A stretch of 64,000 bases of DNA from an uncultured Candidatus Saccharibacteria bacterium. Lineage in GTDB: Bacteria > Patescibacteriota > Minisyncoccia > UBA6257. Of this stretch, positions 5,808 to 63,336 are shown piece after piece. Every line of letters begins with the position of its first letter. Positions within the stretch are counted from its first letter, which is position 1. The notes beneath the pieces were generated by a model. It was given only the letters and a program-made list of their open reading frames with translations, ran no database searches and was not told the DNA's origin. A program made the position numbers and the translations under genes. The stretch lies in contig CAYZJA010000001.1 in the NCBI GenBank assembly GCA_964479005.1, positions 64,001 through 128,000 of the forward strand. The letters run 5' to 3'.

Positions 5808-6940
5808 CAAAAATCCTATTAGTAGAACCAAATTTTCCTATACCACCTAAAAGTAAAAATCATAGGGATTTTTTACCTATTGGATTATTAAAACTAGCAA
5901 ACTATCACAGAGGAAAGGGGGATAAAATTAAACTTGTTAGGGGAAATTATTATTTCCCCGATTTTTATCCCAGTCAGGTAAAAATAACTTCGCTTTTTAC
6001 ATATTGGTCTAATTATGTGTGGGAAAGTGTAAAATTCTACAAAGAAAACTATCCGAAAGCCAAAGTGATAGTTGGCGGCATTTATGCATCGTTAATGCCG
6101 GAGCATTGCAAAAAATCAGGTTGCGACGAAGTATTCATTGGAGTGGATAAGAACGCTGAAAAGTATGAACCAGCCTATGATTTGGTAAATGTAGATTACC
6201 AGATAATGCATACAAGCAGAGGTTGTATTAGAAGATGCAAGTTTTGCGGCACATGGAAGATAGAGCCGGAATTCAAATATAAAAAAAGCATAAAAGACGA
6301 GATTTGTAGCAATCGAATAATCTTTTATGATAATAATCTCTTAGCCAATCCTTATATAAAAAATATTTTTGAAGAGCTAAAGAATTCTAAATATAATGGC
6401 AGGGTTGTATATTCTGAAAGTCAATGTGGCATTGATGGTAGATTGCTTACGCCAAAACTAGCGAAATTGCTAAAACAAGCGAGATTTCTGAATCCGAGAA
6501 TTGCATGGGATCATAGTTATGGTCAGCGAAAAATGATAAAAAAACAAATTGATATGTTGGTAGATGTCGGTTATCCCGTTAAAGACATCTATATTTTCAT
6601 GATCTATAATTTTGAACAAGATTATTATGAAATGCTGAATAAACTTAGGCAATGCAAAAAATGGGGTGTCCAGATTGCGGATTGTAGATATCGACCCTTG
6701 GATCAAACTTTTGATAATTATAATCCTCGAATAAGCCAGACAAATAAAGATTATTATATTCATTCTAAATGGAGTGATAGGCAAATTAAACTTTTCAGAA
6801 AGAAAGTCAGACAACAGAATATTATGATAAGACATGGGTTTGATTTTTACAGTAAAGAGTTGGAAAGATTGGGGACGAAGAAAAGAAATAAAAAAAATAG
6901 TGTCAAATCTATCCTAAATAACCAAAAGGTCAAAAATTAA
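5804..6940 (+). CDS. radical SAM enzyme with an N-terminal B12-binding-like domain
   Basis: CIRRCKFC (CxxxCxxC) follows a Rossmann-like N-terminal domain (KILLVEP...LPIGLLKLANY). Start overlaps the upstream stop by 4 nt. Confidence 0.6.
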   Translation: MTKILLVEPNFPIPPKSKNHRDFLPIGLLKLANYHRGKGDKIKLVRGNYYFPDFYPSQVKITSLFTYWSNYVWESVKFYKENYPKAKVIVGGIYASLMPEHCKKSGCDEVFIGVDKNAEKYEPAYDLVNVDYQIMHTSRGCIRRCKFCGTWKIEPEFKYKKSIKDEICSNRIIFYDNNLLANPYIKNIFEELKNSKYNGRVVYSESQCGIDGRLLTPKLAKLLKQARFLNPRIAWDHSYGQRKMIKKQIDMLVDVGYPVKDIYIFMIYNFEQDYYEMLNKLRQCKKWGVQIADCRYRPLDQTFDNYNPRISQTNKDYYIHSKWSDRQIKLFRKKVRQQNIMIRHGFDFYSKELERLGTKKRNKKNSVKSILNNQKVKN

Positions 6941-6954
6941 TTGAAAAATAAAAA
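6921..6954 (+). promoter_or_regulatory. copy of the conserved upstream motif (aaccaaaaggtcaaaaattaattgaaaaataaaa)
   Basis: Overlaps the last codons of the radical SAM gene and lies 25 nt upstream of the ATG at 6980. Confidence 0.5.
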
Positions 6955-6979
6955 TTAGGAATAGAAGGCGGAAATTATT

Positions 6980-8296
6980 ATGGGAAAAGAAGAAACAAAA
7001 AAAGAAGAAATGAAACCATGTCCTTTATGTGGGACAATGCTTTTATATGATAAATGGTTACAAGTAGTAGGTGTATATGAAGAACAGCAGAAATATAAAA
7101 AACAATTGGAATTAGAATTAAGCAAAGCCAAAAAGCAAGAATTAAAGCTAAAAGAAGAATATAAAAAAATTCGTCAGAAAGAAAAAGAAATACGGACTCA
7201 GTACGCTCTTAAAAAATCAAAACTTAGCCAGCAGCATAAAACGCAATTAGAAAAACTCCAAAAAAGATTTGAAAAAGAAAAACGAAAAGTGCTGAATCAG
7301 GCTAAAAAGGAAGGCATTAAAATCGGTTTTGAGAAAGAACAAGCAAGATTAAAAAAGCTCAAACAACAACAAAAGAAGATCAAAAAGCAATTAGAAAGAC
7401 AAAAACAAATAGAATTAAAACGAATTTATCGTAAAGGAATTGGAATGGGGGAAGAAAAACAGAAAGCAAGAACAGAAAAAGTAAGTCTGATGGCTGAGAG
7501 ACGTCGTAAAGAAAGGGACAAAGCAATGGAGAAAGTAAAACAACTTGAGGAAATGATGAAACAAGGTACAACACCACAGATAGAAGGGTTTAATTTTGAG
7601 AAAGAGTTTGCTAAGCAACTCAAGCAAAAATTTCCAGAGGATGACATAAAGCCAACTGGACATAAGGGGGATATTATCCATACAGTTCAAGCAAAAGAGG
7701 AGAAAATTGGAAAAATTATCTATGAGTGCAAAAAAACTAAAGAATTCGAAAACAAATTTATTGAACAAATTCGACGAGATAAAACTAGAGTAATTGCAGA
7801 TTATGGAGTAATTGTTACTTGGACCACAAAAGAGAGTAAGCAGAATTTTTGGTTGGCGGGAGATATAATTATAGTTCATCCCTATGGGGCCTTAGATATA
7901 GCAACACTTCTCCGCGAAACACTGATACAAATGTATACACTTAAGTTATCAAGGGCAGAGTTTGAGACCAAGGGTAAAGCTATTCTTAAATTTATGCAAT
8001 CTGAGGAATTTAGAACAAGAATTCAAAATTCTATTGTTAAAAGCAGAGAAGCTTATGAATCTTTAAAGAAGGAGATTACAACGCATTTTAATACTTGGGA
8101 TAAGAGAGCCAAGATATACGAAAGTATCTATAAAAACACAAATATTATTCAGCGTACCGTTCAATACGTATTACTTTATAGTAAGATTCCTGAAAATTTA
8201 CCCGAAACAAAAGGACTTCCGCCACTCCAAATATTACCCAAAAAAGAATCAAAAGAGCAAGAAAAAGAGCAAAATGAACAAAACAGACAAAAATAA
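6980..8296 (+). CDS. coiled-coil protein with an N-terminal CxxC zinc ribbon and a C-terminal PD-(D/E)xK-like nuclease-fold domain (DUF2130-like architecture)
   Basis: CPLCGT near the N-terminus. About 180 aa of K/E-rich coiled coil. The C-terminus has GDIIH...IIYECKKT, a D...ExK pattern. Confidence 0.4.
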   Translation: MGKEETKKEEMKPCPLCGTMLLYDKWLQVVGVYEEQQKYKKQLELELSKAKKQELKLKEEYKKIRQKEKEIRTQYALKKSKLSQQHKTQLEKLQKRFEKEKRKVLNQAKKEGIKIGFEKEQARLKKLKQQQKKIKKQLERQKQIELKRIYRKGIGMGEEKQKARTEKVSLMAERRRKERDKAMEKVKQLEEMMKQGTTPQIEGFNFEKEFAKQLKQKFPEDDIKPTGHKGDIIHTVQAKEEKIGKIIYECKKTKEFENKFIEQIRRDKTRVIADYGVIVTWTTKESKQNFWLAGDIIIVHPYGALDIATLLRETLIQMYTLKLSRAEFETKGKAILKFMQSEEFRTRIQNSIVKSREAYESLKKEITTHFNTWDKRAKIYESIYKNTNIIQRTVQYVLLYSKIPENLPETKGLPPLQILPKKESKEQEKEQNEQNRQK

Positions 8297-9367: not shown

Positions 9368-9958
9368 ATGCCAAGAAGAAAAACATTGCTTGATGAAATA
9401 TTTTATATATTAGAGAGAATTAGTGTTGTATATGTAATAGCATTATTTTTTATTTGGTTTTCTGACAAAGAATTATTTTTTAAATTATTAGGATGGGGAC
9501 TCGCAATATTAGGTATTTTAATCGCAATTGTAATATTTACGAAAAGATCGAAGATTCATAAACGAAGTCAATTTGATACTGATAGGGAGTTACAGAAATG
9601 GCTAGGTGATTTGAAGCATTGGGAATTTGAAAATTACATTGGAGATTTATTTAATAAATTAGGATATAAAACTCGGGTTATTGGTGGATCATATGATGAA
9701 GGAATTGACGTTATTGCTGAGAAAAACGGAATAAAACATTATATCCAATGCAAAAAATATAGTAATAGTGTTGGGGTGAAGGATGTGAGAGAATTTTATG
9801 GAGCTTTATCTGATAAATTATCTAATGATAAAGCCTTTTTTATCACCACTAATTTTTTTACTGAAGGAGCTGAAAGATTTGTCGAAGACAAACCAATTGA
9901 ATTAGTTGATGGTAATCAACTCGTTAAATACATTCGCCTTGCCGAAAAATCTAACTAA
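9368..9958 (+). CDS. membrane-anchored Mrr-cat type restriction endonuclease domain protein
   Basis: Two N-terminal TM helices. Mrr-cat core FENYIGDLF...DEGIDVIAE...IQCKKY...FFITT. Confidence 0.7.
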   Translation: MPRRKTLLDEIFYILERISVVYVIALFFIWFSDKELFFKLLGWGLAILGILIAIVIFTKRSKIHKRSQFDTDRELQKWLGDLKHWEFENYIGDLFNKLGYKTRVIGGSYDEGIDVIAEKNGIKHYIQCKKYSNSVGVKDVREFYGALSDKLSNDKAFFITTNFFTEGAERFVEDKPIELVDGNQLVKYIRLAEKSN

Positions 9959-10588: not shown

Positions 10589-10660
10589 GGAAAAAGTCTG
10601 TCTTTTTTGGGCCATTCTTTCCTGGGCCATCAAATTTAGTTCGAAGTTGAGAAAATTTAA

Positions 10661-10692
10661 CCAAAAGGTCAAAAATTAATTGAAAATAAAAA
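10661..10692 (+). promoter_or_regulatory. copy of the conserved upstream motif (ccaaaaggtcaaaaattaattgaaaataaaaa)
   Basis: Immediately upstream of the ATG at 10693. Confidence 0.5.
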
Positions 10693-11019
10693 ATGATTAA
10701 AAAACATAATAAGTTAATTCGGGATAGAATTTTGGAAATTATTGAGGCAAATAAAGAGAAGTCTTATTTTCGGATTCTAAATAAAAAAGAATATATTAAA
10801 GAGATAAAGAAGAAAATATTAGAAGAAGCTAAAGAATTAATTGAAGCCAAAAGCAAAAAGGAAGTTATTAATGAAATTGTTGATATTCAAGAATTAATTG
10901 ATGTTTTGATATCTGAAAGTGGTTTAACAAAATTACAGATTCAAAAACAGCAAGAAGTAAAAAATAAAAAGCGAGGCGGATTTAAAAAGCGACTATTTTT
11001 AATAAAGACAAAAAATTAA
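10693..11019 (+). CDS. MazG/HisE-like all-alpha nucleotide pyrophosphohydrolase
   Basis: KLIRDRILEII...KILEEAKELIEA...DIQELIDVLI...KRGGFKKRLFL matches the PRA-PH/MazG-like small-protein pattern. Confidence 0.5.
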   Translation: MIKKHNKLIRDRILEIIEANKEKSYFRILNKKEYIKEIKKKILEEAKELIEAKSKKEVINEIVDIQELIDVLISESGLTKLQIQKQQEVKNKKRGGFKKRLFLIKTKN

Positions 11020-16441: not shown

Positions 16442-16457
16442 CTAATTGAAGTTTAAT

Positions 16458-16492
16458 TTCGTAAAAGGTCAAAAATTAATTGGGAATAAAAA
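16458..16492 (+). promoter_or_regulatory. copy of the conserved upstream motif (ttcgtaaaaggtcaaaaattaattgggaataaaaa)
   Basis: Ends at the ATG at 16493. Confidence 0.5.
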
Positions 16493-17485
16493 ATGAGTTT
16501 GTTTATAAGAAAAAATTTAGTAAAGACATTAATCTTTTTGTTTTTTCTGATTTTGGCAGGAGGCATTTTTCTTATAGAAGAAGAATTGTATACAGGGACA
16601 ACCCTTGAAGAAGATTTTGTTTTAGAAAAAGGGTTGAATGAGGCTCCAACAGAGAGCCCAGAATTAAAAGAGCCTTCTTTTATAGTTTTATTTTCAGCTA
16701 CTGAGCTTCAGCAAGGAAATACATTAATTATTATGGCAGAGAATATTCCTGAGGGGGAAAAAATTACGGGAAAATTTAACGGTAAATCATTTGATTTTTT
16801 TCCAGTTAAACCAGAAGGAAAATGGAGAGCTCTTTTGGGAATTGATGCAAAAAAAGCTCCTGGAGAATATTCTTTATCAGTTTTTCTTTCTGATGAATCA
16901 GAAATCAAAGAAACAATAACAGTAAAAAAGAGCAACTTTCCTGTAACCAAAATTGTAATAACGCCAGAACTGGAAGAAAAGGGTTTTACTGCATCAAATA
17001 TAGCAGGAAATATTGCTACTAAAGACGGGGTTATTATTTATGGGGTTTTAGAAAAATATAGTTCTATGGCATATTTTAACCAGAGTTTTATTTATCCGTT
17101 TGAGGAAATAATAAACGTGGGCGCTTTTGGAAACATTAGAAAAGACGGAAAGATTACAATTCAGCATTTGGGAGTGGATTTAGATGCTGTTGAGGGGACA
17201 TCAGTTTATGCGATTAATAATGGTAGAGTAGTTTTTGTTGAAGAATTAACAGTTTTTGGTAATACAATTATTATAGATCATGGCTTAGGAATTTATTCTT
17301 TATATTTACATCTTTCTGAATTTAAAGTTTTGGAAGGAGAAATACTGGAAAGGGGAGAATTAATTGGACTTTCTGGAAACACTGGTTGGTCAGTAGGGCC
17401 TCATTTACATCTTTCCATAAAAGTAAATGGAGCAAGCGTTGATCCTTTGGAGTTTATTAGAACGGTTGATGAATTTTTGAAATAG
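16493..17485 (+). CDS. M23 family metallopeptidase (LytM-like), membrane anchored
   Basis: HLGVDL...IDHGLGIYSLYLHLS...GNTGWSVGPHLHLS. Confidence 0.8.
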   Translation: MSLFIRKNLVKTLIFLFFLILAGGIFLIEEELYTGTTLEEDFVLEKGLNEAPTESPELKEPSFIVLFSATELQQGNTLIIMAENIPEGEKITGKFNGKSFDFFPVKPEGKWRALLGIDAKKAPGEYSLSVFLSDESEIKETITVKKSNFPVTKIVITPELEEKGFTASNIAGNIATKDGVIIYGVLEKYSSMAYFNQSFIYPFEEIINVGAFGNIRKDGKITIQHLGVDLDAVEGTSVYAINNGRVVFVEELTVFGNTIIIDHGLGIYSLYLHLSEFKVLEGEILERGELIGLSGNTGWSVGPHLHLSIKVNGASVDPLEFIRTVDEFLK

Positions 17486-21926: not shown

Positions 21927-22640
21927 ATGAAATTAGATAAAAAAGTAGCTTTAGTAACAGGCGGTTCAAATGGCATTGGAAAAGCTATTGCCCAGAGATT
22001 TTTAGATGAAGGAGCAAAGGTTATAATCTTTGATATTGTAAAACCAGATTATGATGTGAATTTTTATAAAGTTGATATAAGTAAAGAGGAACAAATCAGA
22101 AAAGCGTTTGAGAAAATTGAAGAATTAGATATTGTTGTTAATAACGCTGGAATTTATTTTCAAGCATCTGTTGAAGAAACATCAGGCGAACAATTAGACA
22201 AAATGATGGATGTAAACTTTAAAGGAGCATATTTGATTTCTAAATACGCGCTTCCTTTGGTTAGAAAAAACAAAGGAAATATTATCAATATTTCTTCTGC
22301 CATTGGAATTGCACCTGAGCCAGGATCTCCAGCTTATTGTTCATCTAAAGCAGCGATAATAATGCTTACTAAATGTATGGCTCAGGAATATGCTGCAGAA
22401 GGAATAAGAGTAAATGTGATATTACCAGGACCTATAGATACTCCATTATTGAGAAGAGTTCTTTCTTCTGATGAAGCGATTCATAAGTATGCTGAGTTAA
22501 ATCCCATGAGAAGAATTGGAAAACCTCAAGATGTTGCAAATGTGGCAGTCTTTTTGGCTTCAGATGAAGCAGGTTATGTAACTGGTGGAATATATTCAGT
22601 GGATGGCGGAGAATCCAGTTCTAGCCGATATTCAAAATAA
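21927..22640 (+). CDS. short-chain dehydrogenase/reductase (SDR)
   Basis: TGGSNGIGKA, NNAG and YCSSKAA catalytic YxxxK. Confidence 0.85.
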   Translation: MKLDKKVALVTGGSNGIGKAIAQRFLDEGAKVIIFDIVKPDYDVNFYKVDISKEEQIRKAFEKIEELDIVVNNAGIYFQASVEETSGEQLDKMMDVNFKGAYLISKYALPLVRKNKGNIINISSAIGIAPEPGSPAYCSSKAAIIMLTKCMAQEYAAEGIRVNVILPGPIDTPLLRRVLSSDEAIHKYAELNPMRRIGKPQDVANVAVFLASDEAGYVTGGIYSVDGGESSSSRYSK

Positions 22641-22667
22641 GAACCTGCTTCGCAGAACCTTGTTTTT
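22637..22667 (+). repeat. copy of the short dispersed repeat (ataagaacctgcttcgcagaaccttgttttt)
   Basis: Near-identical to the segment inside rplR at 47091-47123, and inverted relative to the tandem units at 44046-44169. Confidence 0.6.
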
Positions 22668-22687
22668 CATTTCATTCAAAATAACAA

Positions 22688-40606: not shown

Positions 40607-41065
40607 ATGGGTATTTTGAATATTTTTAAAAATAAGAACCTTTTTCGTTCTACTCAAAAGAACCTTGTTTCTCGTGATGCTCGAAATAAGAAAATCGAAG
40701 AAAAAAAGGTTGAGAAAGAGAAAACCAAAAAGCCAGTAGCAGAAGAAAAGAAAGTTGAAATAAAAGGGAAGATTGTTTTAGAAGGATCCTCTTCGGCATT
40801 GTTGATTAATCCTTATTTGAGCGAAAAGTCTACTAGTTTAAGAGAGCAAGAAAATAAATATATTTTTAAAGTTAGCCCTAGAGCGACAAAAAACGAAATA
40901 AAAAAACTTTTAGAAAATATTTACAATGTGGAGGTAACCAAGATTAATGTAATAAATACCCCTGCTAAGCCTAAAAGATGGAGACAGAAAAAAAGATATT
41001 TTAACAGGAGTAAAAAAATGATGGTTACCATAAAGAAAGGCCAAAAAATAGAATTAGGAATATGA
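40607..41065 (+). CDS. rplW: 50S ribosomal protein L23 with a K/E-rich N-terminal extension
   Basis: C-terminal L23 core INPYLSEKST...KYIFKV...EIKKLLENIYNVEVTKINV. Confidence 0.85.
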   Translation: MGILNIFKNKNLFRSTQKNLVSRDARNKKIEEKKVEKEKTKKPVAEEKKVEIKGKIVLEGSSSALLINPYLSEKSTSLREQENKYIFKVSPRATKNEIKKLLENIYNVEVTKINVINTPAKPKRWRQKKRYFNRSKKMMVTIKKGQKIELGI

Positions 41066-43844: not shown

Positions 43845-44045
43845 ATGGTAAAAGCAAAAGAATTACGATTAAAACCCGAAGAGGAATTAAATCAATTACT
43901 GTCTGAATCCCAAAAGAAATTACGGGAATTGAGGTTTAATTTGGCTAGCGGAAAAGTTAAAAACGTACGCACCATTCGTGTTTTGAAAAAGAACATTGCG
44001 AGAATTTTAACTATTTTAAATGAAGAAAATGAAAATCAACTCTAA
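43845..44045 (+). CDS. rpmC: 50S ribosomal protein L29
   Basis: AKELR.K..EEL...L.E....L..LRF. Operon position. Confidence 0.85.
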   Translation: MVKAKELRLKPEEELNQLLSESQKKLRELRFNLASGKVKNVRTIRVLKKNIARILTILNEENENQL

Positions 44046-44169
44046 TTATGAGCCAAAGGCGAATAACAAGGTTCTTATTATGAGCAAAGCAAATAACAAG
44101 GTTCTTATTATGAGCCAAAGGCGAATAACAAGGTTCTTATTATGAGCAAAGCAAATAACAAGGTTCTTA
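44046..44169 (+). repeat. tandem array of 4 units (32/30/32/30 bp) of a short dispersed repeat
   Basis: ttatgagccaaaggcgaataacaaggttctta alternates with ttatgagcaaagcaaataacaaggttctta and fills the whole rpmC-rpsQ intergenic space. Confidence 0.85.
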
Positions 44170-44170
44170 T

Positions 44171-44479
44171 ATGGAAAAACAAATTAAAAAACAAAAAAGG
44201 ATATTAAAAGGAGAAGTTATATCAGACAAGATGGATAAAACTGTTGTAGTTAAGGTTTCCAGATTGAAAGTGCATCCGAAATATAAGAAGCGCTATAAAA
44301 TTACCAAGCGTTTTAAAGCCCATGATGAGAAGAATGAGTGTCGTGTAGGCGATAAAGTAATGATTGAAGAAACAAGGCCTCTATCTAAAGGGAAAAGATG
44401 GAAAGTGAAACATAAAGAACAAATAACAAATAATAAGAAAGAAGATGATTCAACCGCAGACAATATTAAAAGTAATTGA
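44171..44479 (+). CDS. rpsQ: 30S ribosomal protein S17 with a C-terminal extension
   Basis: [21 protein letters not shown]...HPKYKK...K..AHDE...GD.V.I.E.RPLSK.K.W. Confidence 0.9.
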
Positions 44480-44813
44480 TAATAGTGGCGCGAAAGTAAT
44501 CCGTTGTTTTCGAGTATTAGGCGGAACGAAAAGAAGATATGCTGAGATTGGCGATATTGTTGTTGCTTCTGTTCAAATAGCTGAGCCTCGTAGAGAAGTG
44601 AAGAAAAAAGCGGTAGTAAAAGCCATAATCGTGCGTCAGAAAAAGGCTTTTAGGAGAAAAGACGGAAGCTATATTCGTTTTAATGAAAACGCTGCGGTTC
44701 TTGTTAATGATAAAAAAGAACCTTTGGGTAATCGTATTTTTGGTCCTGTGCCGCGCGAAATAAAAGAAAGAGGGTATAGTAAAATAGCGGGTTTAGCCCC
44801 AGAATTAGTATAA
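44445..44813 (+). CDS. rplN: 50S ribosomal protein L14
   Basis: [17 protein letters not shown]... Confidence 0.95.
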
Positions 44814-44822
44814 TTTATATTT

Positions 44823-45131
44823 ATGAATATTAAAAAAGGCGATACAGTTTTAATGAAAAAAGGCAAAGATAAAGGAAAGACAGGTAAAGTGATAAAGGTT
44901 TTGCCAAAAGATGGCAAGGTGGTTGTTGAAGCTTTAAATTTAATAAAAAAGATTCAAAAAGCCAAAAAGGCAGGTGAAAAAGGGCAAATGATTTCAGTTC
45001 CGAGACCTGTTTATAGAGCTAATGTTATGCTAATTTGTCCTAATTGTAAGCGACCTACAAGAATTAGTTATACTAAAGATGATGGCGCTAAATACAGAGT
45101 TTGTAAAAAATGCGGTTCAAAGATTTCCTAA
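44823..45131 (+). CDS. rplX: 50S ribosomal protein L24 with a C-terminal CxxC...CxxC zinc-ribbon extension
   Basis: KOW motif KKGDTVLMKKGKDKGKTGKV, plus CPNCKRPTRIS...CKKCGSK. Confidence 0.85.
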   Translation: MNIKKGDTVLMKKGKDKGKTGKVIKVLPKDGKVVVEALNLIKKIQKAKKAGEKGQMISVPRPVYRANVMLICPNCKRPTRISYTKDDGAKYRVCKKCGSKIS

Positions 45132-45137
45132 GTATTA

Positions 45138-45710
45138 ATGACGTTTATGAAATTTTCTTACAAAGAACAATTTAAAAAAATAGTAATTCCAGAAATGAAA
45201 AAAGAATATCATATTGATAATGATTTGAGAGTACCAAGAATTATAAAGGTGGTGGTTAATATAGGCATAGGTCGATTAACTACTGGTTCTAAGAATAACA
45301 AAGAATTAATTAAAAGGGTTTCAGATGCTTTGGCAATAATTACCGGCCAAAAACCATCTGTAAGGGCGGCAAAAAAATCTATTGCAAGCTTTAAAACAAG
45401 AGAAGGAATGCCGATTGGTTTGAAAGTTACTTTAAGAGGCAAGAGGATGGAGGATTTTATTTATAAATTTGTTAGTTTGACCATTCCAAGGATTAGAGAT
45501 TTTTGGGGAATCCCTTTAAAGAATATTGACGAGACTGGAAATTTAAATTATGGTATTAAAGAATGTAATGTTTTTCCGGAGACAGAAAGCATACAAAATA
45601 TTCCTTCATTTGGCTTGGAAATTACCTTTGTTACAAGCACAAAAAATAGAGAGCAGTCAATGAAATTATATAAACTATTAGGTTTTCCTTTATGGCAAAA
45701 AAATCAGTAA
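45138..45710 (+). CDS. rplE: 50S ribosomal protein L5
   Basis: Conserved L5. The start could be the second ATG at 45147. Confidence 0.9.
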
Positions 45711-45877
45711 TAGCAAGATCTAAAAAGAAACCCAAGTTCTCTTCACGAATAGTGCGGCGTTGTTGGCGTTGCGGAAGAAAAAAAGGCTATATTAGAGATT
45801 TTGGCCTTTGCCGTATATGTTTTAGGGAGTTAGCTTCAGAAGGAAAAATACCTGGAATAAAAAAAGCAAGCTGGTAA
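45692..45877 (+). CDS. rpsN: 30S ribosomal protein S14, zinc-binding type Z (61 aa)
   Basis: [23 protein letters not shown]. Confidence 0.9.
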
Positions 45878-45931
45878 AAGGTAAATAACAAATAACAATA
45901 AACAATAGAACAATTTAGTAATTTATATCTT

Positions 45932-46324
45932 ATGACCGATCCTATAGCAGACATGTTAACAAGAATACGTAATGCTCAAGCAGTTAAAAAAGAAACCGTT
46001 GTTTTCCCTTATTCAAAAATAAAATGGGAGATTTTAAATGTTTTATCAAAAAGTGATTATATCAAGGGGTTAGATAAAACAAACAAAAAAAATAAAAAGT
46101 TTATTGAAATAATTCTAAAATATGATGAAGAGAAAACTCCAAAGATTTCTGAATTAAAGAGAGTTTCTAAGCCATCAAGACGCGTATATGTTCACGCAAA
46201 AGATATTTGGTTTTTTAAAAAAGGTTTAGGCATAAAAGTTTTGTCAACTCCAAAAGGAGTTCTTTCTGATAAAGAATCAAAGAAATTAAATGTCGGCGGG
46301 GAGATTTTATTAGAAATATGGTAA
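45932..46324 (+). CDS. rpsH: 30S ribosomal protein S8
   Basis: TDPIADMLTRIRNA... Confidence 0.95.
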   Translation: MTDPIADMLTRIRNAQAVKKETVVFPYSKIKWEILNVLSKSDYIKGLDKTNKKNKKFIEIILKYDEEKTPKISELKRVSKPSRRVYVHAKDIWFFKKGLGIKVLSTPKGVLSDKESKKLNVGGEILLEIW

Positions 46325-46334
46325 TTTATATATT

Positions 46335-46877
46335 ATGTCTCGTATAGGTAAAAAAGAAATTAATATTCCAGATTCAGTTGAAGTAGTATTGGAAGAAAAC
46401 AAATTAAAAGCCAAGGGTCCTAAGGGTGAGGATTTTTTAATTATCAAAAATGGTTTTAAAATTAATATTAAAGATAATGCCTTATTAGTTATTCCTTTAG
46501 AGCAAAAAAAAGATACTTCTGCCCAATGGGGGACTTTAAGAGCATTAATTAATAATCTTATAATAGGGGTAGATAAAGGATTTGAAAAACAATTGGAGAT
46601 TAATGGAGTAGGTTATCGCGCTGATATGGATGGAGCTAATTTGAATCTTAAATTAGGATATAGTCATCCAATTATACTTTCTGTTCCCGAAGGACTGGAT
46701 GTAAAAGTGGAAAAAAATATAATCACTATTAATGGTATTTCAAAAGAAAAAGTTGGACAATTTGCCGCGCTAATAAAGTTTCAAAGGCCTGTGGAACCTT
46801 ATAAAGGAAAAGGTGTTCGTTATGTTGGGGAAAAAGTTTTACGAAAAGCGGGTAAGAAGGTGGTAACCACTGCTTAA
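46335..46877 (+). CDS. rplF: 50S ribosomal protein L6
   Basis: MSRIGKK.I.IP..V... Confidence 0.95.
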   Translation: MSRIGKKEINIPDSVEVVLEENKLKAKGPKGEDFLIIKNGFKINIKDNALLVIPLEQKKDTSAQWGTLRALINNLIIGVDKGFEKQLEINGVGYRADMDGANLNLKLGYSHPIILSVPEGLDVKVEKNIITINGISKEKVGQFAALIKFQRPVEPYKGKGVRYVGEKVLRKAGKKVVTTA

Positions 46878-46894
46878 ATTAATTAAAAGAGTAA

Positions 46895-47299
46895 ATGAAT
46901 AAAAATAGCAAAAGAGAGCAAAGAGAAAAAAGGCATAGAAGAGTAAGGGCAAAGATCCATGGAACAAAAGATAGGCCCCGTCTTTGTATTTTTAAATCCA
47001 ATAAGCATATTTACGCTCAAATTATTAATGATGATAAGGGATTTACACTCGTTTTTGCTTCAGATTTAGAAATCAAAGATTCAAAAAAAGATAAGAACCT
47101 TGCTTCGCAAGAACCTTGTTATTCGCCTTTGGCTCATAATAAAAAAATTAATTTAGCTCAAAAAGTTGGGGAATTAATAGCTAAGAGGGCAAAAGATAAA
47201 AAAATAACGAAAATTCTTTTTGACAGAGGTGGATTTAAATATCACGGTCAAGTGAAAACTTTAGCTGATGAAGCCAGAAAACACGGATTACAGTTTTAA
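46895..47299 (+). CDS. rplR: 50S ribosomal protein L18 carrying an in-frame insertion of about 15 aa derived from the dispersed repeat
   Basis: L18 core ([18 protein letters not shown]...[20 protein letters not shown]), with the extra segment [17 protein letters not shown]. Confidence 0.85.
47091..47142 (+). repeat. inverted copy (about 1.5 units) of the dispersed repeat inside the rplR coding sequence
   Basis: ataagaaccttgcttcgcaagaaccttgttattcgcctttggctcataataa is the reverse complement of the 44046-44169 unit. Confidence 0.8.
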
Positions 47300-57160: not shown

Positions 57161-57164
57161 CTAT

Positions 57165-57588
57165 TGACGATTGAACCTATAAGCCGAATTCTGTATCCTG
57201 TTAAACAGGACGATAGTCATTTATCTAGCCCTGAAATTACTCTCAGGGTCAAGCGGCCACTTTCTGACAAATGTCAGAACACGAGCCTTGCACCCAGTAA
57301 GGATTTAGCCGTTTCATTCTTGAAATTGCTTTCAAGACTCACCCTAATTAAAAAATAATTAGGGTGTTTTGAACTTTTCAGTTCAAAACGTCTCTGTTCG
57401 CACCTCTATTCCAGTTGTAAATCCGTCATTAGCGTTACCGCTAAGAGGCAAAAACTGGAGCGATAGCTGTTAGCTATTACCTTTTACCAACTTTGTTTTA
57501 GGCAAAATTGGTGGTGTTCGGACTTTCCTCCCCGCCTAAGTTTTGCGAACAAAATTTTGGCGGGGTAACTACCCAGTTCAATCGAGAA
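57165..57588 (-). ncRNA. rnpB: RNase P RNA (bacterial type)
   Basis: The minus strand carries GGAGGAAAGTCCGAACACC (P4 5' strand; compare AGGAAAGUCCGGGCUCC) and ACAGAATTCGGCTTATAGG (P4 3' strand; compare ACAGAACCCGGCUUAUCGG). A P1 helix pairs CGATTGAACTGGG with AGGTTCAATCG. GC-rich relative to the flanks. Confidence 0.7.
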
Positions 57589-63129: not shown

Positions 63130-63336
63130 GCGGGCATCGTATAGTGGCAGTACGTAACCTTCCCAAGCCCCCACACCAAACGAGTATCATTGCGAGATTA
63201 GTATAGTGGTAGTACATCACCTTCCCAAGGTGAAGGTGCCGGTCCGATTCCGGTATCTCGCTCCGTTTAAAATTTAAAATACTCGTTGTGGTGTGGGGGC
63301 AAGGTTAAAGTGTGGGTTCGATTCCCATTGTCCGCT
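63130..63336 (+). tRNA. tRNA-Gly(CCC) interrupted by a ~136-nt intervening sequence at the 37/38 position
   Basis: 5' part 63130-63165 (GCGGGCA acceptor, D-arm GTAT/AGTGGCA/GTAC, anticodon stem TAACC, loop TTCCCAA). 3' part 63302-63336 (GGTTA, T-arm GTGGG-TTCGATT-CCCAT, acceptor TGTCCGC). The ends of the intervening sequence form a ~20-bp helix (CCCCCACACCAAACGAGTAT / ATACTCGTTGTGGTGTGGGGG). Confidence 0.5.
63192..63264 (+). tRNA. tRNA-Gly(CCC), complete, lying inside the intervening sequence of the outer tRNA
   Basis: Acceptor GCGAGAT/ATCTCGC. D-arm GTAT-AGTGGTA-GTAC. Anticodon stem TCACC/GGTGA with loop TTCCCAA. T-arm GCCGG-TCCGATT-CCGGT. Confidence 0.7.

Follow-up and report, generated by a model that had tools for sequence, protein, structure and literature searches.

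A very small two-hairpin repeat, probably a non-autonomous insertion element, in operon spacers and in frame within ribosomal protein genes of Patescibacteria

The small dispersed repeats of Nostocaceae were reportedly described by Elhai et al. in 2008 as 'very small mobile repeated elements'. IS608 has subterminal hairpins, no inverted repeats and a short distance between its 3' hairpin and its end; it inserts next to a specific tetranucleotide and may be excised seamlessly. The mycobacterial MIRU lie in operon spacers and carry small open reading frames (ORFs) that overlap by ATGA. REP and REPIN sequences are hairpin-forming, non-coding and non-autonomous repeats of 20-50 nucleotides (nt) with a conserved single-stranded tag beside the stem (PMC3116915; PMC3733652). 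Rickettsia palindromic elements (RPE) are palindromic selfish repeats that lie in frame in unrelated housekeeping genes and are translated (PMC10969869). The Rfam family Gut-1 (RF01706) consists of tandem small hairpins with a constant linker and is known only from gut metagenomes (PMC2864571). Here, we describe a repeat of around 50 nt that occurs at four loci in a 64,000-nt stretch of DNA, hereafter the window, from an uncultured Candidatus Saccharibacteria bacterium (assembly GCA_964479005.1, contig CAYZJA010000001.1, positions 64,001 to 128,000 of the forward strand). The window belongs to a metagenomic contig of 551,616 bp (JGI 3300028837), has a G+C content of ~32% and carries the S10-spc ribosomal protein operon on its + strand. 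We read the four loci, with moderate confidence, as copies of a very small non-autonomous insertion element that would be mobilised in trans by a hairpin-recognising enzyme.

On the forward strand, the element comprises, in order, TTAT, a hairpin with tandem G-A pairs (hairpin Y), the invariant, single-stranded core AACAAGGTTCT, a second, variable hairpin and the invariant end AGGTTCTTAT, with a total length of 46-54 nt. Hairpin Y has covarying inner stem pairs, two conserved sheared-type G-A/A-G positions and a GC-GAA-GC tip; the G-A positions on either side of the inner stem are 96-100% conserved. The second hairpin is free in sequence, often GCGAAGC or GCCGAAGGC, can contain further nested small hairpins, and can be missing or replaced by another Y. 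GCGAAGC is an unusually stable DNA mini-hairpin. A covariance model (R1), built from 18 family members and run on the whole window with filters off, matched exactly four loci (71.6, 61, 54.6 and 50 bits; E-values from 1e-11 to 1e-17), and no other match in the 64 kb rose above ~18 bits.

The highest-scoring copy (71.6 bits, E 2.8e-17) lies on the - strand at 47091-47138 within rplR, the gene of ribosomal protein L18 (uL18; ORF 46895-47299, + strand, 134 amino acids (aa)), and reads, after its TTAT flank, TATGAGCCAAAGGCGAATAACAAGGTTCT, T-GCGAAGC-A and AGGTTCTTAT. A first-pass annotation of the window, made from its letters, had proposed an insertion of about 15 residues here, built from 1.5 units of the array described below. 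The insertion itself stands, while its size is 48 nt or 16 aa, and instead of 1.5 units it is one complete canonical element with hairpin Y, core, GCGAAGC mini-hairpin and core. A copy directly 3' of the SDR gene had likewise been recognised, as a fragment at 22637-22667; it is a complete solo canonical element at 22637-22684 (- strand; 61 bits, E 1.8e-14), which reads TTAT, TTTGAATGAAATGAAAA, ACAAGGTTCT, GCGAAGC and AGGTTCTTAT on the - strand (also written as TTAT/TTTGAATGAAATGAAAAACAAGGTTCT-GCGAAGC-AGGTTCTTAT). The TAA stop codon of the SDR gene (22638-22640) falls in its terminal ATAA. The first-pass annotation did not contain the remaining in-gene copy, which is more diverged and lies in frame near the N-terminus of rplW (uL23, hereafter L23; ORF 40607-41065, + strand, 152 aa), in the region of NKNLFRSTQKNLVSRDAR, at 40632-40685 (- strand; 54 nt or 18 aa; 50 bits, E 1.7e-11). 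Two degenerate copies close to the start of rplW, at 40633-40669, came out of a core-motif search, and the L23 copy is an older, diverged element.

The fourth locus is a tandem array on the + strand at 44047-44170, where, as originally proposed, four alternating head-to-tail units (44047-44078, 44079-44108, 44109-44140 and 44141-44170; 32 + 30 + 32 + 30 = 124 nt) fill the spacer between rpmC and rpsQ (L29-S17). Each unit consists of hairpin Y (TAT GA GC(C) AAA G(G)C GA/AA ATAA) and the core CAAGGTTCTTAT, the shorter type being without one G-C pair of the hairpin. Tandem Repeats Finder reports a period of 62 with 2.1 copies and 98% matches over 44041-44170. On the + strand, the exact 32-nt unit is found at 44046 and at 44108; a copy with a single mismatch occupies 47108-47139 on the - strand. 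The unit had no match in 100 shuffles. On its 5' side the array is flanked by TAAT (44043-44046, + strand); this tetranucleotide includes the stop codon of L29 and corresponds to the TTAT flank of the family. The S17 ATG at 44171 follows directly on the 3' side of the array. The sense strand of the array also carries, at 44048-44145, mini-ORFs in which the stop codon of one and the start codon of the next share ATGA (ATGAGCC...TTATTATGA), and these might serve to couple the translation of L29 to that of S17. The four loci occur in both orientations on a single replichore; three of the four are antisense to the mRNA and the array is in sense.

That these copies arrived by insertion is shown by empty sites in close relatives. 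The operon was compared with three related lineages. In the 9,521 columns common to all four sequences, the window shares 95.2% identity with L003, 93.3% with L004 and 90.8% with L013; the nearest named relatives of the window's L18 are 'Candidatus Pacebacteria' and metagenome-assembled genomes (MAGs) of Patescibacteria. Almost all of the closest L18 homologues (best 120 listed), the nearest included, are 118 aa long. Aligned with the window, as the first-pass annotation had suggested, the nearest orthologues are ~97% identical outside one gap, at which they read ...KKD/KKINLAQK (a slash marks the junction), and this alignment does not show the inserted segment in deeper outgroups, as would be expected if the empty sites were deletions. 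In the comparison of the operons the insert is exactly 48 nt, and the reading frame is preserved as had been proposed. At the nucleotide level, the empty site in L003 is AAAAAAAG ATAA AAAAATT, and the ATAA (47139-47142; TTAT on the - strand, which is the strand of the element) that occurs once there stands on both sides of the insert in the window. L23 is 134 aa long in L003 compared to 152 aa in the window, with lengths of 134, 142, 144 and 152 aa across relatives. Since the start MGxLxIFKKK is kept in all of them and the length differences are all multiples of three, the inserted stretch is coding. Between L29 and S17, L003 and L004 have the empty site CTCTAAT/ATG where the window has 124 nt, and L013 carries one Y unit and a second hairpin at the same nucleotide position. 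Occupation in the window and in the outgroup L013, with an empty site in L003 and L004, implies either one precise loss or repeated insertion at this position.

The empty sites at L18, L23 and L29-S17 bear out the description of the repeat as a dispersed, mobile-looking short element, and that of L18 as an essential ribosomal protein gene that tolerates an in-frame insertion. They also dispose of the reading that the segment belongs to L18 orthologues in general and resembles the repeat by chance. In an AT-rich genome with short repeats, chance similarity or an assembly artefact deserves consideration. This explanation is already refuted by the outcome of the shuffles (0 of 100), by the E-values of 1e-11 to 1e-17, by the more than 200 copies found elsewhere and by contig L002 from a second, independent metagenome. 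As the same insert-bearing L18 is encoded on L002, the insert is not an artefact of assembly.

Several other observations were made in the operons of the relatives. The element of L013 between L29 and S17 is 51 nt long and in frame with S17. The gene caller started S17 of L013 (6380-6739, 119 aa) at an ATG inside this element (TTATGAGC...), 17 codons too long, and the N-terminal extension may be genuine or an artefact of annotation. rplR of L013 contains another in-frame insertion, a perfect palindrome of 39 nt (9557-9595; GGTTAACCCTGTTGAAT...ATTCAACAGGGTTAA; 13 aa), and rplR of L011 an in-frame palindrome of 78 nt (around 1170-1250; CCCCCACACCAAACGAGGAC...GTCCTCGTTATGGTGTGGGGG; 26 aa). Both sit a few codons upstream of the element site in the same L18 loop, where unrelated hairpin elements have thus landed repeatedly. 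A sister repeat, which differs in its cores (AACAACGTTCT-TGAGCGATAGCGAA-AGGTTGTTAT), is found in L003 at 7205-7245, inside the C-terminal coding region of L29 at the 3' end of rpmC (L29 of 71 aa compared to 66 aa). L004 (3364-3470) and L013 (6116-6145) carry it between L16 and L29, in one or two copies. Larger, classical MITE-like (miniature inverted-repeat transposable element) insertions with inverted ends of the type CCCCGTTAGAAATT / AATTTCTAACGGGG are present in the relatives and absent from the window, namely one of 132 nt (L003 690-822, corresponding to around 37626 in the window) and one of 194 nt (L013 7074-7267, in the L14-L24 spacer). Finally, no S14 gene is called between L5 and S8 in L003 (8817-9037) or in L005-L007, while the window and L004 have an S14 of 61 aa; the uncalled gene in the closest relative may stem from a frameshift, from a gap in gene calling or from genuine loss.

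This genome is not the only one to carry the element, an aspect that goes beyond the first-pass annotation. More than 200 related copies, which is a lower bound, were found elsewhere. A metagenome scan that fixed only the two cores (AACAAGGTTCT N6-30 AGGTTCTTAT) returned at least 120 matches, and the first hairpin, not selected by this pattern, lies directly upstream in nearly all of those listed. A second scan, with one genome per species, fixed only hairpin Y and the first core and again gave at least 120 matches, of which nearly all listed carry the unselected second hairpin and AGGTTCTTAT. Because two independent patterns each recovered the part that was left unfixed, the architecture is family-wide. 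Hosts among the matches listed are Patescibacteria (Saccharibacteria, Parcubacteria, Wildermuthbacteria and Shapirobacteria) and many gut and rumen Clostridia MAGs (Acutalibacteraceae, Ruminococcaceae, Oscillospiraceae, Eubacterium and Faecalibacterium), so that the family is present in at least these two groups. The label Gammaproteobacteria on a few bins and the label Pacearchaeota on another should be treated with caution as mis-binning is possible, and three matches in coding sequence (L166, L179 and L216) are likely due to chance. A pattern scan of IMG/VR matched four contigs. A BLAST search with a dimer consensus gave no match among 72,556 plasmids and 50,697 phage records. No Rfam 15 family covers the element, as searched in the whole window (gathering threshold), the operon, nine loci from the candidate phyla radiation (CPR) and eight Clostridia loci (E up to 1-10). 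Full-text searches, including the core sequences and repeats of CPR/Patescibacteria, found no published description of the element, and the family is apparently undescribed. Its copies occur both solo and in tandem arrays, with periods of 36, 41, 45, 46, 48, 51 and 52 nt.

The secondary structure was assessed on 132 matches (120 distinct copies) aligned to the model. Standard pairs fill 95.2% of the cells and nine out of 11 pairs are changed on both sides among the distinct copies, while none of 500 shuffles reaches the observed pairing and slid partners pair at 29-62%. Strong covariation of hairpins combined with invariant single-stranded motifs is also what a functional cis-acting RNA would display, and one could regard the family mainly as a stabiliser, terminator, processing site or protein-binding site under selection, with the in-gene copies as by-products. 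We consider this unlikely. It would fit with the slight excess of G-U over A-C combinations on the forward strand (23 versus 12 in helices 2-5), with the sense orientation of the array within the operon transcript, and with the position of Clostridia copies in mosaics of hairpins and linkers, one of which adjoins the element with a part that matches Gut-1 below the gathering score (39.3 versus 50 bits). However, the orientation to transcription is near-random, with 28 sense and 40 antisense copies between co-directional genes and three of the four window copies antisense. Moreover, copies also lie within coding sequence and tRNA genes, the element itself has no Rfam match and its predicted stability is weak. 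As an RNA function would not explain how new copies reach new sites, it could only supplement the insertion-element reading. Self-cleaving ribozymes were considered as well, prompted by the GA...GA motif that flanks the stem; hammerhead, pistol and twister were rejected as there is neither a CUGAUGA/GAAA core nor an Rfam match. Integron attC sites, CRISPR repeats and iterons were dismissed on the basis of sequence and spacing.

Around 15 loci lie deep within long ORFs. One acetyl-CoA synthetase (Acs) has 61 extra aa in the form of four tandem 16-aa units, which fall precisely at the junction of residues 91 and 92 in the Salmonella enzyme, and an additional copy closer to its N-terminus; an MnmA protein has 21 extra aa (63 nt) compared to solved homologues. 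The in-gene inserts that were checked (L18, L23, Acs and MnmA) measure 48, 54, 4 x 48 and 63 nt, all multiples of three and stop-free, whereas lengths that are not multiples of three do occur among intergenic copies and arrays (periods of 41, 46 and 52 nt, and the 124-nt array). This difference in length, together with the open frames, argues that the in-gene copies are translated as extra loops and not spliced. In an AlphaFold2 model of L18 the fold is kept, with a mean pLDDT of 81.7 and around 90 in the core, while residues 61-80, which include the insert, form a low-confidence stretch (~53) flanked by well-predicted parts; solved L18 structures have no counterpart of the inserted segment.

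In gut Clostridia MAGs, many copies reside inside extra, partly truncated copies of the tRNA-Arg(CCU) gene with an intact gene adjacent, between the D arm and the anticodon stem (L147 5563-5790, L196 1300-1480 and L172 330-920). The module of tRNA and element is itself repeated in L172. The intact sequence GGATATAA/TAAACCCC becomes GGATATAA/...ATAA/TAAACCCC when occupied, with the same ATAA junction as in L18. A context of ribosome-binding site plus gene had initially been assumed 3' of the Clostridia copies and was rejected when the sequences turned out to be tRNA-Arg(CCU) halves. The interruption of essential genes and of a tRNA gene by a conserved structure could bring to mind tiny introns that are cut from the transcript and leave proteins and tRNA unchanged. 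This is very improbable given that all in-gene copies checked keep to multiples of three without a stop in the host frame, while intergenic lengths do not always do so, that the element-bearing tRNA-Arg copies adjoin an intact one and are partly truncated, and that no ribozyme family matches. Other short repeated peptide segments were also observed in CPR housekeeping proteins (phosphoglycerate kinase, PGK, with RGEPALTRRGRPALTRRG, L022 1016-2284; UvrA, L069 412-3411), which suggests further families of in-frame repeats in such proteins.

The aligned sequences show that the copies insert at the DNA level beside (T)TAT, multiply head to tail into arrays and are tolerated as in-frame loops. Once a new copy has landed next to (T)TAT, the occupied site has the short motif on both sides. 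In most family members the 5' flank is (N)TAT, and (T)TAT is present in 79-92% of the copies per base position. A tally of 114 distinct copies gives 67 with TTAT at both the 5' and the 3' side, 45 in which the 5' flank and the 3' end disagree, mostly at the first base, and two that deviate identically. The TTAT end of the element would recreate the target with each copy, which would explain gap-free tandem arrays, and loss could be precise and seamless. The enzyme would act in trans, recognise hairpins in single-stranded DNA and cut at the conserved single-stranded motifs, possibly in analogy to the Y1 transposases of IS200/IS605 or to the REP/RAYT system. We infer a single-strand mechanism because the element combines subterminal hairpins of the GCGAAGC type and invariant single-stranded motifs with the absence of inverted repeats, because its 5' flank TTAT is able to pair with the internal A(C)AA, and because of the recreated target and the possibly seamless loss. 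The second hairpin ends 10 nt from the 3' end. The ends (5' TATTAC/TATGAGC... and 3' ...AGGTTCTTAT) are not reverse complements of each other. With no terminal inverted repeats, the element falls outside the strict definition of a MITE, and the label 'MITE-like' given to it at first was a loose one.

A number of points weigh against this reading. No transposase was found to be linked to the element or near any copy in the locus flanks searched, and a tblastn search of 1.8 Mb of flanking DNA with an IS200 TnpA query gave no match. When the 2,571 ORFs of 244 element-bearing loci were clustered all against all, the families that recur near copies were housekeeping ones (such as UvrA-like ATPases, PGK and DnaK), and no longer element with the same ends was found among the loci examined. 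The flanks themselves are ambiguous. At L18 and tRNA-Arg, 4 nt (ATAA) appear to be duplicated, at L29-S17 only 2 nt, and a duplication of 2-4 bp (AT, TAT or TTAT) fits about as well as duplication-free insertion beside the target. The alignment used for covariation was fitted to the model, and the search patterns imposed part of the sequence conservation. The predicted DNA folding energy of the window copies is no better than that of shuffles (z from -1.0 to +0.6), for which reason the structure call rests on covariation and not on energy. Furthermore, slippage or recombination could give array growth and precise loss without a dedicated enzyme.

The latter point can be extended to an explanation without any transposition, in which part of the array was copied into L18 through ectopic recombination or template switching at AT-rich stretches of microhomology, and replication slippage enlarged the array. 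The L18 copy is indeed identical to array unit A at 32 out of 32 positions, inverted and 3 kb away, arrays are perfect head-to-tail repeats, and the short direct repeats at the flanks could drive slippage and precise deletion. Nonetheless, the L18 copy has a GCGAAGC second hairpin that no array unit carries, the full architecture and junction recur at unlinked loci (22.6 kb and 40.6 kb) and in other phyla, and unrelated targets (tRNA-Arg, Acs and MnmA) share only (T)TAT. We therefore regard this explanation as improbable, even less likely than the RNA-based one, and retain the insertion element as the preferred reading. A bolder extension, which we offer as a tentative possibility, is that the family represents a cross-phylum class of ~50-nt mobile elements made of hairpin modules and the core AGGTTCT, in which (T)TAT would be chosen by pairing of the flank with an internal AACAA 'guide' and which would be moved by a single-strand (HUH-type) enzyme or a conserved host activity. 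In ultra-small genomes, such elements would be a regular source of change in essential proteins, tRNA genes and operon spacers. CAAG and GAAC, which we take to be target tetranucleotides of IS91, are both present in the core, and we mention this as a lead only.

An insertion element has thus colonised even a genome of 0.55 Mb in which hardly any DNA is spare, and it is small enough to persist as an extra loop in essential ribosomal proteins. The occurrence of the same ~50-nt architecture in Patescibacteria and in gut and rumen Clostridia points to a widely shared mobilisation machinery or to frequent horizontal spread. On the practical side, the element can cause false N-terminal extensions (S17 of L013), indels in alignments of ribosomal protein markers and broken tRNA gene copies, and it may serve for strain-level markers. 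If target choice does use base pairing as in IS200/IS605, it would offer a very compact model of guided single-strand DNA insertion.

Elsewhere in the window, the RNase P RNA (bacterial class A; 57164-57584, - strand; 110 bits) and one tRNA (63192-63262, + strand) are ordinary genes. Another motif of 30-40 nt, AAAAGGTCAAAAATTAATTGAAAAATAAAAAT, occurs in ~13-17 copies between 2996 and 20178 on the + strand (e.g., 6915-6955, 10654-10694 and 16454-16494), each just 5' of an ATG in the gene cluster at 3-20 kb, and looks like a shared promoter or regulatory box.

Among the systems introduced above, REP/REPIN sequences resemble the element in that both occur as single copies and in clusters and have no terminal inverted repeats. 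Both are also built on hairpins, REPs (20-40 nt) as an imperfect palindrome and the element as two covarying hairpins. They differ in their tags, which are AGGTTCT/TTAT (AACAAGGTTCT and AGGTTCTTAT) in the element and GTAG or CGTC in REPs, and in their clusters, which are direct and head to tail in the element compared to inverted doublets in REPs. REPs are extragenic, whereas the element is also found in genes (L18, L23, Acs and MnmA), and no RAYT gene was found near any of its copies. REP families are specific to a species or genus, while the sequence of the element is conserved across phyla. The presence in frame in protein-coding genes, with open frames and insert lengths in multiples of three, is shared with RPEs. 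The latter are ~100-150 bp long and confined to Rickettsia and close relatives; the element measures ~50 nt and is also found in tandem arrays, and its hosts are Patescibacteria and Clostridia. Like the small dispersed repeats of Nostocaceae, it is much smaller than ordinary MITEs, forms hairpins, interrupts conserved sequence, nests and has no known mobilisation mechanism. Those repeats, however, are 21-27 nt long, cyanobacterial and of other sequence, whereas the element is a two-hairpin module with long invariant single-stranded cores.

With IS200/IS605 and PATE-type elements, it shares subterminal hairpins, the absence of inverted repeats, insertion adjacent to a tetranucleotide, a 3' hairpin close to the end and possibly seamless loss. 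It differs from them in that no Y1 transposase is associated with it and in being far shorter than known pairs of left and right ends. Short units and variable-number tandem arrays in operon spacers are in common with mycobacterial MIRU and pneumococcal BOX, and the units of the L29-S17 array carry ATG...TGA mini-ORFs that overlap by ATGA as in MIRU; MIRU and BOX have other sequences, are each found in a single genus and have not been reported in frame in ribosomal protein genes. The Gut-1 match mentioned above is found in L156, where a mosaic of small hairpins (1-240), with many UUCG- or GAA-type loops and the constant linkers AGTGTTATT and AATAAAACT, immediately adjoins a Clostridia copy. 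The match lies outside the element itself, the linker of Gut-1 is GUGAAAU compared to AACAAGGUUCUUAUU, and the window gives no Gut-1 signal. Conversely, Gut-1 itself might consist of arrayed repeats of a broadly similar type. Overall, the systems most like the element are REP, RPE and other very small repeats. Among these it stands as a small hairpin repeat whose range of hosts is unusually wide and whose in-frame entry into essential genes is clearly documented.

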